This document shows, piece after piece, positions 24,596 through 36,143 of a stretch of 64,000 nt of DNA. The position numbers and the translations under genes were made by a program. Source of the DNA: Carcharhinus amblyrhynchos (lineage: Eukaryota); contig OZ336897.1 of the NCBI GenBank assembly GCA_965287045.1, positions 25,482,001 through 25,546,000 of the forward strand, read 5' to 3'. Position 1 is the first letter of the stretch. Every line of letters starts with the position of its first letter. The notes below the pieces were generated by a model. The model searched no databases. It saw only the letters and a program-made list of their open reading frames with translations, and was not told the DNA's origin.

Positions 24596-27531
24596 TCACT
24601 ATCATCCTCTCCACCTGCAGCTCTCAGTTTATCTCCAGGGAGTGCAAAACAGGAGATGACACTCTACAAATCGCTAATTAGACTTTCCCAGATACCTCGG
24701 GATGCGGTTTGCCTTTTCGCTTCTATGCGGCTTTATAGCTAAATATAGATAGAAGCTTAATTTATTTAAAAATGTTAACACGCAGCTTTGCTTCGGCATC
24801 CTGCTGTTTTTTAAGTGTATCTATTTACATCAATGTTATGACACCTAGTATTTATCTGTGTATATGCATTGGAATGTATAGATATACTGTGTTCTTATAT
24901 TTTTTCATCCTTTCCTTTTTTTTGTATTTACATTTCAGCCAAATGGTAGATGTTATTCACTAATACTGGAAGCTAACACTGACACCTCTTGTCCTTTCTC
25001 GTTCCTTTCCCATAATTTTCTATGGCAGTCTGCTTTTTTAAAATATATATCCTTAACACTGCACTTTCCCCACCGTCTGAAATCACCTCCTAATCAGTGT
25101 CTATCGATTTTCGCACCTCTTTTTATCCGGTTATCCCAGCATCTGAAACATGCCTTTAAAACCTCTCTCTCTTTACACACAGTGATTTACCCCCTTGCTC
25201 TCTGCTCACCAGCGGAAAAAAACAATCGATATGCCCGTGTTATTTGTGTGTGATCAGTAAATATTTGGTCTGGTGACATCTTCAGCTTTCCTCCCAATCG
25301 ATACAGGACCCAATAGGAGGCGTGCTGCAATCTGTAGACAACTACTGTCTCCATGGTGTACCTTTCTAGCCCTTCTCGTTTTTTCTCTCTCTCTCTTTCT
25401 CTTCCTGCTCTTCTGTTAAGATCAATTTCTTCTTGACTCAACCCCTGAGTCACGCCCAGTATCCCTTTAATGCGACACGATTGTTAATAAGCTAGTTGTC
25501 TTGTTATCATCAACTTTCCATTCATAAAACGGAGTGACTTATTAAGTCTAGAGCGTACATAATCACTTAATAGCACAAGTATTGGCGCTAACCTGATTTC
25601 TCTAATGCCATGCATTCACAGGACACCCCGGCAATGCAATGTTGTGCTTATCTTCAACAATACCATACATTTTAAATCGGTGTTAGTTCTATTTTTCAGT
25701 TGCAGCAGAGTTCGCGCGTCGACCATCATTTGAGTGCCGATGCTTTCTAGAAGTGAAATCAATGAGACATTTTATGTTGAGTTTCAACGCTGCAGTGTTA
25801 ACTTTTTTTTTAACTTATTGACAAGACTTGGGTTACAACCATTGCATCTGACCTTTTAAGTTTCAGCTATCCCTTCCCAATTAGACCACAATGTTATTTG
25901 CTTACATGTTAAGCGTACGCCGCTGGACTTCACCGCCGCCCCTACCCCCCTCCCCGCCACACACACACACACCCAGTTAACTTTAAAATGTATTTCTCTA
26001 TACGATGCTTAATTGAAACCAAAAGGAAACGTTTTATTTGTTCGAATTGGACAAATTTCAGTTGTGCGCTGCAATTACTTGTTAAGCGGCGTCCTTACAA
26101 TGCAACCACAAGTCCTTTGAGAAAGTGCATAAGTTATATATGTCTGCAGACATCAAACACCTAGGACATGTCCAGTTAGGTTTTTATTTAGCATCATTAA
26201 CAATTAAAATAGGGTTTCATATACAGGAATGACTTATGTTCAAATGCACTTTAAATTGTTCTCCCTCGTTTAGGCATTTCACTTGCAGGTTTGCCTCTTA
26301 TATACCACACAAAAAAAAATCAATACATTTCTGATGAGCAAAAGGCGTTTTAAAAACATATACAGATGTATCCATAGAAATGTCTATATCATGTTTAGGT
26401 TCTCTCACCTATTACTCCATTAAAAATGGTTGTATGGAAAAGTAGTGGAGCGGCTAATACTGGCAAGATCTGGAAGTGCACATATACTTAATGATTTAAT
26501 TGCGGCAGATTCCTACCCTAGAATCCGGAGAGTGAGCAGTATTTAGCTGCAATCAGGCCAGAAATGTTGCACAAGATTTTTCTCTTGAAAGAGTGCCTAT
26601 GTGTCCATTGAAGGGCGCTGATCCGAAAAGACAGAGCGGACAAATAAAAATCGATCTGAAGCGACCCTGGCCGTCCTTTTCACACGATTCACACACAATC
26701 CCCTCTCAACTCTGCCGAGACAAAGGCCCGAGGGCTGGGGGGGTGGGGGGGGGGTAGTGTTGTGGAGGAGAGATTCTCCACAAGCTACAGATACCCTTTC
26801 CAAAACGCGCAGATAATTTTACACTGGCCACAAACCACATTCTACATCAACAATTCTTCTCAAAACCTCAAAGCAATATTAGCTCTTAAGTCAGTGCGTT
26901 GATGGGGTAAAGCGGGGGGCGGGAGTGAGGTGGGGGGGGGAGCGGTTAAGCGTTGGAGAAAATCATCACCTTGGTAATTCTGAGGCTATGGCAAGTTTGC
27001 AGAAGGAATAAACTACAGACAAATAAACTTTGACAACAAGAAAGTTGCCCAAACTCCAGCGAGCACACGAGTCTATATTATTTGGGGATGTGTGTTTAAA
27101 ACAAAAGATTTTAATTCAATTATTCCTCTCTCTCTTTCTCCATCTCTCTCTCCCCTTCCTCTTACTTAACTAACTCAGGGGCAAAGCATTTCTGGTTTGA
27201 GGCTGAGAGTTCCAAACTAGCTGCTGTACTCTTGCCTTCCACGTTTGCCTCTTTAAAAAAGGAATTAAAGGAAAGGGAATTTTAGTAAAGAGACGTGGAA
27301 CTGATCTCAGCAAAAGAGTCAAAAATTGCTAAGAGTAATCGCTCTTGTATTGCTCGGGGGGTGCTTTGACCGCTCGCATTCCGGTGCACTTTGAATAGCT
27401 CGGGCAGCAACGCCAGTCCCATAAAGTTTACCACGAGATGGGGCGAAAGTTAAATTGCAAAATCGAAAGTGCTTCACTTGTTTCTGAGTATGCCAAATGC
27501 AAAGCTTCTCGCCAAAGGTTAGCCTTTTCTT

Positions 27532-27540
27532 TATATAAAA
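27532..27540 (+). promoter_or_regulatory. Candidate TATA box of an upstream alternative NR2F2 promoter
   Basis: TATATAAAA ~60 bp upstream of the open frame of the putative alternative first exon. Confidence 0.4.
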
Positions 27541-27600
27541 ATATATATATCACAGTTTACACTATCGGTCGGGGCAAACAGATGACGGTCGATGGAATGA

Positions 27601-27817
27601 ATGATTGTCTTCAATAGACAAATAGATCAGGTGAGGAGGAGACAAACCCTCCTTCTGTTCACCTGCCAGAAAAAAAAGAGATTCATCTCACTCAGTAATT
27701 TCCAACTCAGTTCCGCCAAGATTCACAACTTCCTGTGTCCAGAGAGGAGACTCGAACCCACCACGACGCAAATAATTTCGGACACTGAACAAAGACAATT
27801 GCAAGCAATGATGTTTG
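27601..27817 (+). CDS. NR2F2: Putative alternative first exon of NR2F2 (DBD-less isoform); start codon uncertain (ATG 27601, ACG 27766, or ATG 27808/27811)
   Basis: Open frame ending TTT G|GTATGT, a strong phase-1 donor compatible with exon 2. The peptide TQIISDTEQRQ...F resembles the recalled human isoform-b N-terminus MQAVWDLEQGKYGF. Confidence 0.6.
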
Positions 27818-29012
27818 GTATGTTTTTAATAAATATATATGTATATATATATTACTTAGCTTGGGGGGGGGTTGTTTTTTTTTTCTTGATCAGGACATAA
27901 TCGTTCTTAAACACCTGTATTTATTAATTAATCTATATTATTTTGACATCAAGCAGTTTAGAATTTCAACACTCGGAGGATATTCAATGTCCGTTCAAAT
28001 AATTACATTTGGGGCTTTAATTCATTTGAGTTTTTTTTGCTTTCTCTGTCTGTCTTCGAAATGACATTAAATCAGGCTGGTGTTTTATATTTTTGCTCTG
28101 GCTATTTTTGACAATTGAGCGAACAGCCCTTGCGGTTCCGCGTAGTTGTGTGTATGTCTCCCAGCGCAATAGCCATCACCCGTCGGACATTCAATCGCAC
28201 CCGCGTATGGGTCGCGGTATCTCCCCACTGTGTAATATTAGCATTAGACAACAGAAGGTCCCGCAACAATACGAATTCGCCAACTTAGAAATAAACGGGG
28301 GCTTCGAATCTTTCTGAAACGGCTTGCCCCGTCCTGGAGGTAGAAACCCAAAGCCTCTTTGCCCCTGCGTTTCAATGAATTAGATTTGTTTCCTCCCCCC
28401 CTCCCCATTCATTGTCAAATTGTAATAGTGTAATAGTGCTCTGATTTACAATGCTAGGCTGAGCTCATTTCTAAAACTTTTTAAAATAGATATGTAAAGC
28501 ACAGAATCGCCGCAAATAAGAAATTAGCCATTACTACAATCAACAGATATAATATTTGAACTGGGCATTAGAAATTGGTACTCACCACTTTTCTATCTAG
28601 ATCCACATACCCATCTGATGATTTGGGGGCAAAGGCGAATTTATTTATAGGGGGGTAGGAAGCAGCCGTCTTCGATTTAGCTTTACGGCGTTAGAAGAAT
28701 CGCTTTAGAGAGAGAGGGAAGAAAAACAAATCTGTTACCAATCGGTTGTTTTGGAAAAGAAGTCTTAACGCCAACCATCTAAGTCAAGCAAGCGTCCGGG
28801 CAGATCTGGGTAAAATAAAAACACAAAGCGACGGAGATCAGCAGTCCCGCTCAGTAACGTCCGAGTCAATTAGAGCAAAATCCTAAAGAATTAATCACAT
28901 TAAAGGTGCAGAAGTTTTTTTTTCGGGGTATAAAGGGCGCGTTGTGAGCGAAGAGGCGCCGCGATCCTTTTGAAAGGCTTTTCTCCTCTGGAGTTCTACA
29001 GCGACACTCCAT

Positions 29013-29038: not shown

Positions 29039-31814
29039 CAAGATTTTGACAAATTCTCCAGCATATGCTGCGATTTAGCACTGTAAATTTTTCAGGAGCC
29101 CGCTGCACTGACAGCTCCCGGTGTCTATCAAAGTGCCACAAGTCACCGCTTCAAAACTGCAATGACTTTGAGATCACCGGGACACAATGGGAACCACTTT
29201 CCCTATTCATCGTGTTGCAATGTAGTGTGTGTGAGAGAGAGAGGGGAGAAAAACCAGGGCAAAATCACAGGGAACTCAAATTCAATAGATCTAGCTGGTT
29301 ATCAGAGAACAACTGAGAAGTAAGTGGCAACCAGATCGTCTTATAAATAGGTTACTCTGGCCATGCTATGGTTGGCACCCAATGCAATATTCAATTAACC
29401 AAATACTATACGTTCCCTCATCTTTTTTTAAAAAAAAGAAATACATTTAAATGGCGGTTGCTGGTTTGCTCCAGAACAAATCCGAAGTTACTTCTGAAAT
29501 TATTGCAACCTGTCCATTTGTAATAAAGAAAACAATGAGTACATTCTGTTCCAGAAAACCTACAAAATCCAATCTTGTGAGGCCGGGGAGGAGGAGGTGG
29601 GGAGGGGGAACTCACCTATACTGGCTTTATGCACATTTCACCAAATAACGTTGATATCCTGGCACGTTAGTTTAATTAGCAACATAAGATATTTCCTTCA
29701 TATTTCTCAAAATTGACCGCATGTTGCATTTTGGATTGTTGAGTGTCAATGCTTCATATTATCTTTTCCTCTGACACTTTTTTTAAAAAATCAACTGTTA
29801 CGTTTGAAAAGATGCATGCATTTTGCAAATTGCAATTGCTGAAGATGCTTTATGCTGAAGGGTTTTGCCCATTCTTTGCTAATGTGAGTGAGCGTGGTTT
29901 CTGTACGATTGCATCAAATGAGCATCAAGTCGAACTTGAGTTTATTCACCCTCCAAGTAACCAGATTAATAGTGCGTTATAGCTTTTTTTTTTAAAAAAA
30001 ACACTTTATTAAATTGTAAACACATCACCAAGAGATTGCTCCCACAGACTATCGACATTCAGGCAAATTTCTGAAAGAAATTCAAAGCAGCAGAGAGGGG
30101 GAATAATTGTGCCGAGTAACGGTATTTGAAGTACTACCCTACTTGCACCTCAAATCGAACACCTGTTTAATGTCATCTTTCCCTGGACCCGTGTTCTTCC
30201 CTCGAATGTTCATAATTTCACATTTTATATGTTAACTGGCAGTCGTCGTTTAAGCGTGTAAATATTGGACCATTAAAAGTAACACGTACTTTTAGTTTTC
30301 CACAAGTGAATTGCGAAATGCACAGGGCTCCTCTAAAAATGTGCAGTAAAGTCCATCTTTTTAGAATGTTGGATACTGTGAAACTTGCGTCTGCAACTCG
30401 GCGCCAGCGAATTCTTAACACTTTGCAATTTCCTACAATAACACAATACGTATTCTTTTTTTCTCTCCAAACATCAGTTCATTTACATCTACTTACTTAG
30501 CTGTCTAGATAAATTTCGCAAATCACCCATTGCTACAATTAATTATAACCCTAAATGCGACCAGAACCTCCAAAAACCAATGAATATACCTGAGCCAGTA
30601 TATTTCTCACGAACATAATAACATTTGTCAATTTTGCTCTGTTGAAACCATCACTTCTTAGTTAATTCTAGCAGCGCTACCAATAGACTAACCTCAACCA
30701 ACCCGAGTGACTACTGGATGTAATGTGGTGTAAATGCAAAATAAAGACATTGGAAATTCGAATCTATGATCATTGAGGGGCATGAAGGGGGGAAAGCGTT
30801 ATCGGGGCAGCCCGGTTCCAAAGATTCGCCGCTCTTCCACATTGTTTTGGGGGAATTTGAAGCGAAATTATTCATCAATCTGCATGCATCTCTGTGTATC
30901 TCTGTCTATGTGTTTCTATGCATCTAGCTAAGTGCACGCACACTTCAAAGCTGTTTCCACTTTTAAGTATTTCAAAGTAAACGTGATATTTATCCGTATT
31001 AATAATGGTTCATCAGATGAATGAGACCCTCTCTAACATTCATGGCTTCTCTCAGCCTACACACCTTCTGCAACCCGTACAGGAACAATTCTCCTTCATA
31101 AACCAGCCGTGGCTGATTTCTGACATGGTTGGTCCTTAATTTTATTTGGATACTTTCATTTTAAAAAAAATCTTGAAATAATCCTTGCCACACTTTCCCC
31201 AACAACTCCCGTCAGGACATCTCAATCAGTGCAAAAAAAAAGCCTCGCCGCCAATGTTCCATCTTTCAGCAGCAACTTTTGTCCTTGACCAGAAACTGAT
31301 TTGTGAATAGTGTGTGTTTTATTCTCTGGTATTGATGGGGTGGGGGTGGTGATGGGGGTAGCATTTGTGTTCGAGAACCTGCTTGCTAAAGAACCTTGGG
31401 GGGGAAAGATATATATTTACCTATTTGCTCATACAAGCTATAGGGTGGATTCTTTATTAATATCAAGTTGGCATTGCAATATTCCACCTCCAATAAAAAA
31501 AGACGAGCTTATACATAATTGGGAGTATTCAGTGTGGTTGAGAATTTCTGCTTTATTGGATTATTTAATATACATGTTGTTAATTTGTGATAGCAATATT
31601 TTAAAAAAAAGAAAATTGAGTTATTGCCCATTTTATTAAAAAAATGAAGAAACAGGGTGTGGGGGGTAGGGTGGGAGTGGGCTGATGGGGAGGGAGGGAG
31701 GGAGGGGGAGAGAAATAGAAAACTTATTTTTTTCCCCCCAAGTAGACCTCTGCGCATGGATGTAATGTAAATTTGTTGGCGGCCAGGACGTGCTGGATAA
31801 TAAGTAAGGCGACT

Positions 31815-32000
31815 GTCCAATGCGGTACAGGGGGCGGGCCAGATGTCCCAGCCCCCCGAACCTAAAGCTCTGACCAGTCGCCTTTGATTGTCAGTCGCCA
31901 GCAGCCGCCGCTTGGCTCCGTCACTCGGCAGCCCCATATAAGGAAAGCATCTCCATAGAAACGTGTCAGTTTCAATAGTCGTGTCAAAGTTCACTATATA
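31815..32000 (+). promoter_or_regulatory. NR2F2 main proximal promoter
   Basis: CCAAT (31817), GC box GGGGCGGG (31831), CArG box CCATATAAGG (31934-31943), DR1 GTGTCA-A-AGTTCA (31981-31993) and TATATA (31995-32000), in a CpG-rich context. Confidence 0.8.
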
Positions 32001-32024
32001 CAGCCATCCGCGCAGATTTCCCCT

Positions 32025-32746
32025 TTCAGAAAAATTACTCCGCAAGCCCGCTCGTTCAAATCGGATTCACTTCCAACCCCCCTTTTTGCATATTTGATCA
32101 GTTCGATTCTCTCTCCCTTCCCTTATTTTTCGCCTCCTCTCGCATGAGAGAGGTTCTATAGCTCCCCTTTTTTTTCCACGACGTCGACTCCTATTTTTTT
32201 TGTGTGTGTGTAGTCTCTCTCTTTTTTTTGCTGGCGAGTTGTTGAGTCTCTTCCTCTCTGTGTGTATGTGTGTGTATGTGTGCAGTTCCCCTACCAGTAC
32301 GGCGAAGAATTTATGATCAGTTGATGGTCGGGCACTTCTACTCCGGATCGTGCATTTGCCTTCAAGAGTCGATCCCCCCTCTCTTTTTTCCTTCTTTTTA
32401 ATCTTTTAACCTTTCGTTCCCCCCCTTCGTCCTTTTTTTATGGGTTTCCTGAATGGCTGACTGCGTGCTGCCCTGGTACTGGCCCCCCGACACTCGCTTC
32501 TTCTCTGCCGATCGGATTTGAGCTCCTACTCTTTCTCCCTCTCCCTCCCCCTCTCTTTCTCTTTCTCTCTTTCTCTTTCTCTCTCTCTCTCCCCCCTCTC
32601 TCTCCTTCTCTCCCTCCCTCTCTGTATTTTTTTTGGGGGGGGTTGTTGTCAGCTAATCGACTCTTCCTCCTTCGTTTTGTTCCTGATCTGACGATTCCAA
32701 GACAAGACAGGTTTTGTTTTGTCTGATAACACTCTTGCCCCGAGAT
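32025..32746 (+). other. NR2F2: Inferred NR2F2 5'UTR, pyrimidine-rich with upstream ATGs
   Basis: Lies between the TATA-predicted start and the ATG at 32747. CT tract at 32528-32622; short uORFs at 32440-32460 and 32453-32521. Confidence 0.6.
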
Positions 32747-33167
32747 ATGGCAATGGTAGTTAGTACGTGGCGAGACCCGCAGGACGACGTGGCCGGAGCG
32801 CAGGGCACACAGCCACCCCCGCCTCAGCAAGGACCGCAACCGCCTTCTGGAGCACCCCTTACCCCGCAGACCCCAGGGCAGCCGGGAGCCCCGGGCACCC
32901 CGGCCCAGTCCAACCAGCAGAACCAGCAACAAGGCGAGAAACAGCAGCAGCATATCGAGTGTGTGGTGTGTGGCGACAAATCGAGCGGCAAACACTACGG
33001 CCAGTTCACCTGCGAAGGTTGCAAGAGTTTCTTTAAGAGAAGTGTGCGCAGAAACTTGACGTACACATGTCGTGCCAACAGGAACTGCCCCATAGACCAA
33101 CACCACCGCAATCAGTGTCAGTACTGCCGCCTGAAAAAATGCCTGAAAGTCGGCATGAGACGGGAAG
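32747..33167 (+). CDS. NR2F2: COUP-TFII / NR2F2 coding exon 1 (N-terminus and C4 zinc-finger DNA-binding domain)
   Basis: [14 protein letters not shown]...[33 protein letters not shown]...CLKVGMRRE. Phase-1 donor G|GTATTG. Confidence 0.98.

Positions 33168-33908: not shown

Positions 33909-34520
<612 letters not shown>

Positions 34521-35816: not shown

Positions 35817-36143
<327 letters not shown>

Follow-up and report, generated by a model that had tools for sequence, protein, structure and literature searches.

A likely shark counterpart of the NR2F2 isoform 2 first exon, with ACG at the probable position of the ancestral start codon

The 64,000-nucleotide stretch of Carcharhinus amblyrhynchos DNA analysed here (the window) carries the NR2F2 gene and, upstream of its zinc-finger exon, an alternative first exon that we call exon 1b. 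On balance, we favour the explanation that exon 1b is the shark form of the first exon of NR2F2-Iso2, that it would have its own promoter and give an isoform with the ligand-binding domain (LBD) but no DNA-binding domain (DBD), that the ancestral ATG start of this isoform became ACG, and that translation would now begin at two ATGs at 27808 and 27811. This kind of isoform is known, and the shark exon is already present in automatic annotation.

Exon 1b and its predicted join to exon 2 of NR2F2

Six diagnostic residues and the C-terminus match NR2F2 and not NR2F1, which identifies the host gene as NR2F2 and not a paralogue. The main NR2F2 protein has 407 aa from ATG 32747, and its coding parts are:

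32747..33167 (+), main exon 1, coding part with the zinc fingers (zf-C4 at residues 71-139), which the isoform would skip
33964..34491 (+), exon 2, hinge and first part of the LBD
35869..36143 (+), exon 3, coding part with the remaining LBD, dimer helix, AF-2 and stop

The residues encoded by exons 2-3 are identical to those of three shark NR2F2 models (266/266) and nearly so to those of skate (264/266). Since the zinc fingers lie wholly within main exon 1 and the LBD within exons 2-3, a join of exon 1b to exon 2 would lose the DBD and keep the LBD. Indeed, the predicted short product is DBD-less and has a complete LBD, covering the whole crystallized COUP-TFII LBD (3CJW). The features connected with exon 1b are:

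27582..27617 (+), out-of-frame short uORF of 11 codons with ATGs at 27582 and 27597, overlapping ATG 27601
27592..27600 (+), minimal in-frame uORF (Met-Glu-stop), ending just 5' of ATG 27601
27601..27603 (+), upstream in-frame ATG in weak context (-3 T, +4 A), start of the 338-345 aa database models
27601..27817 (+), open part of the alternative first exon (exon 1b), based on the frame and database models
27670..27677 (+), A8 run with inferred length variation among five elasmobranchs, one base longer than in horn shark
27743..27744 (+), extra AG, of ambiguous placement within 27741-27746, which restores the frame shifted at the A run
27766..27768 (+), ACG where the ancestral start probably stood (skate and sawshark models have Met here, those of horn and whale shark Thr), with a second ACG at 27763
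27766..27817 (+), 17-codon counterpart of the 14-residue isoform 2 N-terminus, with three extra codons
27808..27813 (+), two in-frame ATGs (-3 G and -3 A), putative working starts for products of 270/269 aa
27818..27823 (+), phase-1 splice donor GTATGT
33943..33963 (+), 21-nt extension of exon 2 through an alternative acceptor, encoding VCSFRTA as in the skate X3 model

ATG 27601, ACG 27766, ATG 27808 and ATG 27811 share a single frame without stops up to G 27817, directly 3' of which the sequence reads GTATGT. Exon 2 starts at 33964 and is preceded by CAG, in a NAGNAG arrangement whose second AG would lead to 33967. Because G 27817 is completed by the CA of exon 2, the joint would encode Ala, after which the frame runs into AVQRGR. 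The predicted spliced products have 339 aa (from 27601), 284 aa (from 27766), 270 aa (from 27808) or 269 aa (from 27811), and all end in NWPYMSIQ. A phase-1 donor that fits exon 2 is therefore found upstream of main exon 1, as in NR2F2-Iso2; 4930 nt separate it from the main ATG 32747, and exon 1b is present as a single copy in the genome. A preliminary description of this region had given the frame 27601-27817, the phase-1 donor G|GTATGT and products of 339, 284 and 270 aa, and all of these coordinates are right. We consider the splicing of exon 1b to exon 2 to be very highly probable.

Exon 2 itself has three in-frame acceptors, one at 33943, which adds the seven residues of skate X3, and the NAGNAG pair at 33964/33967. 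Their use would vary the hinge of the full-length and the short forms alike.

Twenty-four sequencing runs were considered, 18 of which were presumed, by guess, to be RNA. Contigs of four of the 24 (X1, X2, X5 and X6) over 27171-28100, a stretch that does not include exon 2, had neither joints nor loose ends. They were few (depth 2-7), were spread over the exon, the part upstream of it and the intron alike, and left 27728-27890 uncovered. The X1 contig over 27551-27727 matches the A8 run of the window without gaps.

Elasmobranch gene models with the same exon

A comparison of the 72-residue frame of exon 1b with longer proteins gave two matches among 22 candidates (E-values of 3e-12 and 5e-11). 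In the clusters of these two matches, 5/5 elasmobranch NR2F2 models join exon 1b to exon 2:

Amblyraja radiata (thorny skate), X3 and X4, XP_032906396/7, each with a second accession
Rhincodon typus (whale shark), X3, XP_048471873, with a UniRef entry common to two Galeoidea records
Heterodontus francisci (horn shark), X3, XP_067873881
Pristiophorus japonicus (sawshark), X3, UPI00398F4119

The exon had been called hidden, which it is not, as RefSeq/UniRef models of these four named species already contain the join. The accompanying proposal, that an upstream first exon gives a DBD-less NR2F2, is borne out to the extent that these models join the same exon to exon 2. All five models begin with MI[LV]FNRQIDQVR at the upstream ATG, and their exon ends with QAM[M/T]F, followed by exon 2. 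The exon and the junction are the same as in the window, and the LBD part is identical at 264-266 of 266 positions, whereas the leader of the window is in another frame over about 24 codons. All of the models start at the far upstream ATG, and none marks the ancestral start or its loss. Skate X3 and X4 use acceptors 21 nt apart, and the window shares both of them as well as the seven residues that lie between.

It should be noted that these entries are computed gene models, which can be carried over between species. NCBI models of alternative isoforms rest mostly on transcript evidence. A second listing of the cluster contained no further elasmobranch isoform, and no chimaera was among the models listed. 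In the main cluster of LBD-only forms, 40 of the 136 members were read and 15 listed, and shark models of 270 or 284 aa may stand among the others.

Relationship to NR2F2-Iso2

NR2F2-Iso2 of human and mouse, also known as COUP-TFII V2 or isoform b (NM_001145155), has 281 aa in mammals. The preliminary description had proposed homology to the N-terminus of this isoform on the basis of a 14-mer, which is indeed present in the database (P0158), and the proposal is upheld by the comparisons that follow. A protein search with exon 2, limited to entries of 96-307 residues, gave 672 matches among 1962 candidates, the best 120 of which were considered. A 14-residue start of the type MQ...F/L was present in 18/68 further cluster members listed, all LBD-only forms of NR2F2, and its carriers are primates, bats, carnivores, turtles, a parrot, lizards, frogs, a caecilian and the reedfish. 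In three teleost entries (P0014, P0017 and P0135), the corresponding peptide has 13 residues and finishes with AF.

Eight distinct 14-mer N-termini of isoform 2, all from bony vertebrates, were combined into a profile, from which the teleost N-termini were kept out owing to their length. Among 416 donor-linked open-frame candidates upstream of exon 2, exon 1b ranked first, with a score of 9.9 (candidate mean -12.8, standard deviation 6.2, next best 7.4); without this constraint, its peptide ranked fourth among 127,936 six-frame positions. Compared with the individual bony-vertebrate 14-mers, the peptide of the window has 4-6/14 identities and a three-codon gap, and it shares EQR with the reedfish. 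The first codon of the Iso2 peptide is not AUG in the window but ACG. From skate to mammals, the reading frame between the ancestral codon and the donor is preserved, and so are the phase and the final Phe. The alignment to the Iso2 14-mers marks the codon at 27766 as the old start, and Met was then found at this place in skate and sawshark.

Taken alone, the single signals of exon 1b (donor, TATA motif, open frame) are ordinary or weak. On the + strand of the window, 328 of 3419 GT sites (9.6%) fit the U1 consensus as well as the exon 1b donor does; a stretch of 204 nt free of ATG arose in 150/2000 shuffles and the open frame in 169/2000. What lifts exon 1b above chance is comparison, namely the rank of its peptide in the profile search and the five elasmobranch database proteins.

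Three further searches ended without related sequences. HMMER against representatives at 50% identity gave one match, a repetitive protein of 1548 aa that was judged to be due to chance; a metagenome scan with a 20-mer gave four loci, all of them (4/4) chance matches of 21-22 nt; and short unspliced ORFs of other species, sought with an alignment of five sequences, were found in none of 118 candidates.

Judged from these sequence comparisons, exon 1b is very likely orthologous to the first exon of Iso2. The elasmobranch models, the profile rank and the Met in skate and sawshark together make it likely that the first exon of human and mouse Iso2 goes back to the jawed-vertebrate ancestor. Accordingly, the suggestion that the isoform predates the split between sharks and bony vertebrates is supported by the peptides from reedfish to mammals and the elasmobranch exon. 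The modest likeness between the shark and mammalian peptides counts against orthology, as does the unconstrained rank of only fourth.

Like Iso2, the product predicted from the window would start from an upstream alternative first exon joined to exon 2, would lack the DBD and have the full LBD, and would carry a short N-terminal peptide with Q2, D/E6, E8, Q9 and the final F; the leucines of the dimer interface are kept. The window differs from Iso2 in having three extra codons with an in-frame ATG ATG before the donor, ACG in place of the ancestral ATG, a further in-frame ATG 165 nt upstream, and a second acceptor that adds seven residues. Methylation control and function of Iso2 have been shown for human cells only. 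DBD-less COUP-TF forms that use other first exons or peptides are NR2F2 isoform c (261 aa, with its start inside exon 2) and the LBD-only models of NR2F1.

Probable change of the ancestral start codon

An ACG had been proposed to stand where the ATG of the isoform once stood, and the models agree with this: at the position of codon 27766, skate (two proteins) and sawshark have Met, the horn and whale sharks have Thr, and the window has ACG. The sawshark belongs to the Squalomorphii, and horn shark and whale shark belong to the Galeomorphii. Skate lies outside the sharks. Since Met is found in skate and sawshark and Thr or ACG in the galeomorphs, the simplest explanation is that T changed to C once, on the galeomorph stem, and we regard an ATG-to-ACG change at 27766 as likely, where the Thr of horn and whale shark is known as a residue only and the polarity of the change rests on one squalomorph and one named skate.

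A first Met beside the donor is present in all five database proteins and in the window, but in none of eight bony-vertebrate peptides, all of which keep the first ATG. With one or two such Met residues in elasmobranchs and none in bony vertebrates, the old ATG appears to have had a backup. The history may therefore have begun with an ATG-Gln codon pair as the start of the isoform in the jawed-vertebrate ancestor; elasmobranchs have three additional codons, and in-frame ATGs beside the donor, and with these as a backup the old ATG could have turned into ACG in the galeomorph stem lineage.

Possible starts of translation

From 5' to 3', the region contains ATGs 27582, 27592 and 27597, ATG 27601, 204 nt without ATG, ACGs 27763 and 27766, and ATGs 27808 and 27811. 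Both ACGs have A at -3, ATG 27808 has G and ATG 27811 has A, so that two in-frame AUGs in usable context follow ACG 27766 after 42 and 45 nt. For ribosomes that pass the short uORFs, or re-start after them, ATG 27808/27811 (270/269 aa) would be the main start, and ATG 27601 (339 aa) and ACG 27766 (284 aa) would each account for less of the product. As the original start has likely decayed from ATG to ACG, translation would be expected at the backup ATG 14 codons later, and we put the chance that 27808/27811 is the main start at about even. Several observations count against it. The 13 codons from ACG to ATG 27808 are identical in the window and horn shark, with one change in whale shark, as expected if they are still translated, although variation in the part upstream is not significantly greater. 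ATG 27601 is open in the same frame in every one of the five species seen, and a 10-pair hairpin is predicted over ATG 27808/27811 across the junction (z of -2.4).

A start at ATG 27601, with the same exon and splice, would give an LBD protein of 339 aa. Its leader of 55 residues would be kept in frame but free in sequence, and this upstream start would have made the old ATG dispensable. We consider this rather unlikely. It is in its favour that ATG 27601 is the start of all five database models and is in frame in all five species seen, although the leaders differ by indels: relative to horn shark, the window is longer by one base in the A run and by two at the AG repeat, three in total, whale shark has a different +1/+2 pair that also sums to three, and sawshark has +3. 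The A8 of the window is the length found in the X1 contig, and no ATG in any frame follows over 204 nt. However, the models were found with the exon peptide itself, so that species with ATG 27601 out of frame would be invisible, and gene predictors choose the longest ORF. The context of ATG 27601 is weak, and short ORFs with better-placed starts run over it. Moreover, the frameshifted middles of the leaders imply that the residues themselves are under no selection, and the indels of whale shark, inferred from protein only, could be assembly slips.

It is less likely still that ACG 27766 (or 27763) serves as the main, low-efficiency start, which would have kept the ancestral peptide, lowered the dose of the isoform and made this a natural conversion of AUG to ACG at an orthologous start. 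ACG 27766 coincides with the ancestral Met and has A at -3, the peptide that follows is identical to that of skate and horn shark (16/16), and the hairpin predicted 32 nt downstream buries the next AUGs. According to passages of PMC5666671, ACG is a documented initiator, with Met, but a weak one, near-cognate starts being much weaker than AUG, and here two in-frame AUGs follow within 45 nt. No strong hairpin is predicted 10-45 nt behind ACG 27766 (z of +0.4), including the helpful distance of 14-18 nt, and the codons that follow the ACG are not significantly more conserved than those that precede it (2/16 versus 9/42 variable columns, p-value of 0.71). Doubtful to a similar degree is the wider proposition of a DBD-less NR2F2 isoform throughout jawed vertebrates whose AUG start turned, in galeomorph sharks, into an ACG that still works, while an upstream AUG guarded in frame provides a second start, in a lineage-wide switch to non-AUG initiation that lowers its dose.

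Finally, three upstream ATGs before the first in-frame start, a leader that tolerates frameshifts and the shortness of the Iso2 likeness (4-6/14) could mean that the exon is transcribed and spliced but gives little protein, as a uORF-damped regulatory transcript, or that it is an unrelated, shark-only exon, but this is very improbable, since skate and mammals, and the groups between them, share the phase, the final Phe and an open frame between the ancestral codon and the donor, and since two lineages have Met at the place predicted by alignment.

Possible promoter region

Exon 1b is likely to be transcribed from its own upstream promoter and then spliced to exon 2. A TATA box had been assigned to this region, for which the motif exists:

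27532..27541 (+), TATA-like motif TATATAAAA within an AT-rich tract, a possible promoter element

Its role as a promoter was not substantiated, as the motif is common, lies in an AT tract, and there is a weak hint of a promoter further upstream. The + strand of the window has 26 TATAWAWR clusters, which amounts to a chance of about 11% within any 300 nt. The hint comes from the five human bisulfite primers for the Iso2 promoter given in passages of PMC10073109, two of which match weakly and in order at 27077 and 27199 (p-value of about 0.09 each), the other three giving nothing useful; it points, weakly, to an Iso2-type promoter upstream of the TATA motif. The interval 27330-27600, upstream of the open frame, contains 15 CpG with an observed/expected ratio of 1.13, but the 620-nt region is only in the top 21% of 204 windows. 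This CpG patch might contain a methylation-sensitive promoter.

Paralogues and other features of NR2F2

The 2.9-Gb genome has four NR2F loci, the NR2F2 of the window and three elsewhere. Passages of a review state that sharks have retained Nr2f5, which is missing from skates and chimaera (PMC8608329). The set of loci therefore marks the window as shark DNA, and the residues that it shares make a galeomorph likely. Within about 16 kb upstream of the NR2F1 paralogue, no counterpart of exon 1b was found by blastn, nhmmer or the peptide profile (best score 8.7 among 205 candidates), so that an origin of exon 1b before the NR2F1/NR2F2 duplication is unsupported. This search covered NR2F1, the other two paralogue stretches having ended short of exon 1 upstream or being without exon 1.

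About 400 nt of the main promoter and 5' leader (31750-32150) can be aligned at 74% with the NR2F1 paralogue, as a paralogous conserved non-coding element. The leader of main exon 1 also contains a uORF of 22 codons at 32453-32521 (+), MADCVLPWYWPPDT..., which is shared with the NR2F1 of this genome. The NR2F1 uORF has 17 codons and lies 325 nt before the NR2F1 main ATG; 13 of its first 14 residues are identical to those of the NR2F2 uORF, with 90% identity over 53 nt and the same start context. The peptide is also found at the N-terminus of the coelacanth NR2F2 model XP_005993516. Kept in both paralogues, this uORF would predate their duplication, which suggests translational control. A literature search on a leader uORF shared by NR2F1 and NR2F2 found nothing.

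The second zinc finger is overlapped by another frame without stops, 33067-33165 (+, shifted frame), which begins at an out-of-frame ATG. The counterpart of this frame is the start of an NR2F1 model from an eagle (P0146), and the NR2F1 of the window's genome keeps it open over the aligned part. This frame may only mirror the codon constraint of the zinc finger.

Many LBD-only models of NR2F1 with other first peptides were found in amniotes (P0009, P0010, P0101, P0137-P0149). A single eagle NR2F1 model places such an exon behind exon 1, which suggests that DBD-less forms arose separately in the two paralogues.

Possible function and significance

The COUP-TFII LBD dimer is a solved, textbook pair. 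The short protein would have the whole ligand-binding and dimerization domain and no zinc fingers, and would pair with full-length NR2F2 and tune it. Human Iso2 is described, in passages of PMC10073109, as having an upstream start site controlled by methylation, as binding full-length NR2F2 via L231/L232 and as moving targets up and down. Both of these dimer-interface leucines are kept in the shark form, which makes a heterodimer-based modulator the best inference, and by analogy with the human isoform we deem such modulation probable. The isoform had been termed potentially dominant-negative. This is too narrow: the human isoform raises or lowers full-length activity depending on context (passages of PMC7016888 and PMC10073109), inhibition being one documented outcome. 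According to the review passages, which name the isoform for mouse and human, it was inhibitory in one cell type but enhancing in another (PMC7016888; also PMC5785710), and the human isoform is both nuclear and cytoplasmic (PMC8997336).

The literature treats the isoform as a feature of human and mouse, mostly in cancer (PMC7016888, PMC10073109, PMC5785710, PMC8997336), and links the human isoform to cancer spread; melanoma and pancreatic cancer are where it is known from. The literature searched, which excludes most subscription papers, held no report of the isoform outside mammals or of a change of its start codon, and the word 'isoform' is absent from the main text of the paper on Nr2f evolution (PMC8608329).

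The jawed-vertebrate root lies about 450 million years back. The presence of the isoform at this root, as suggested by the reedfish-to-mammal peptides and the elasmobranch exon, argues for a normal role in development, with the neural crest or the endothelium as plausible sites. The M/T split also means that the 339-aa database models may carry the wrong start. Above all, it offers a clean natural case of start-codon turnover in sharks, which tells whether the N-terminal peptide of the isoform matters or only its LBD.
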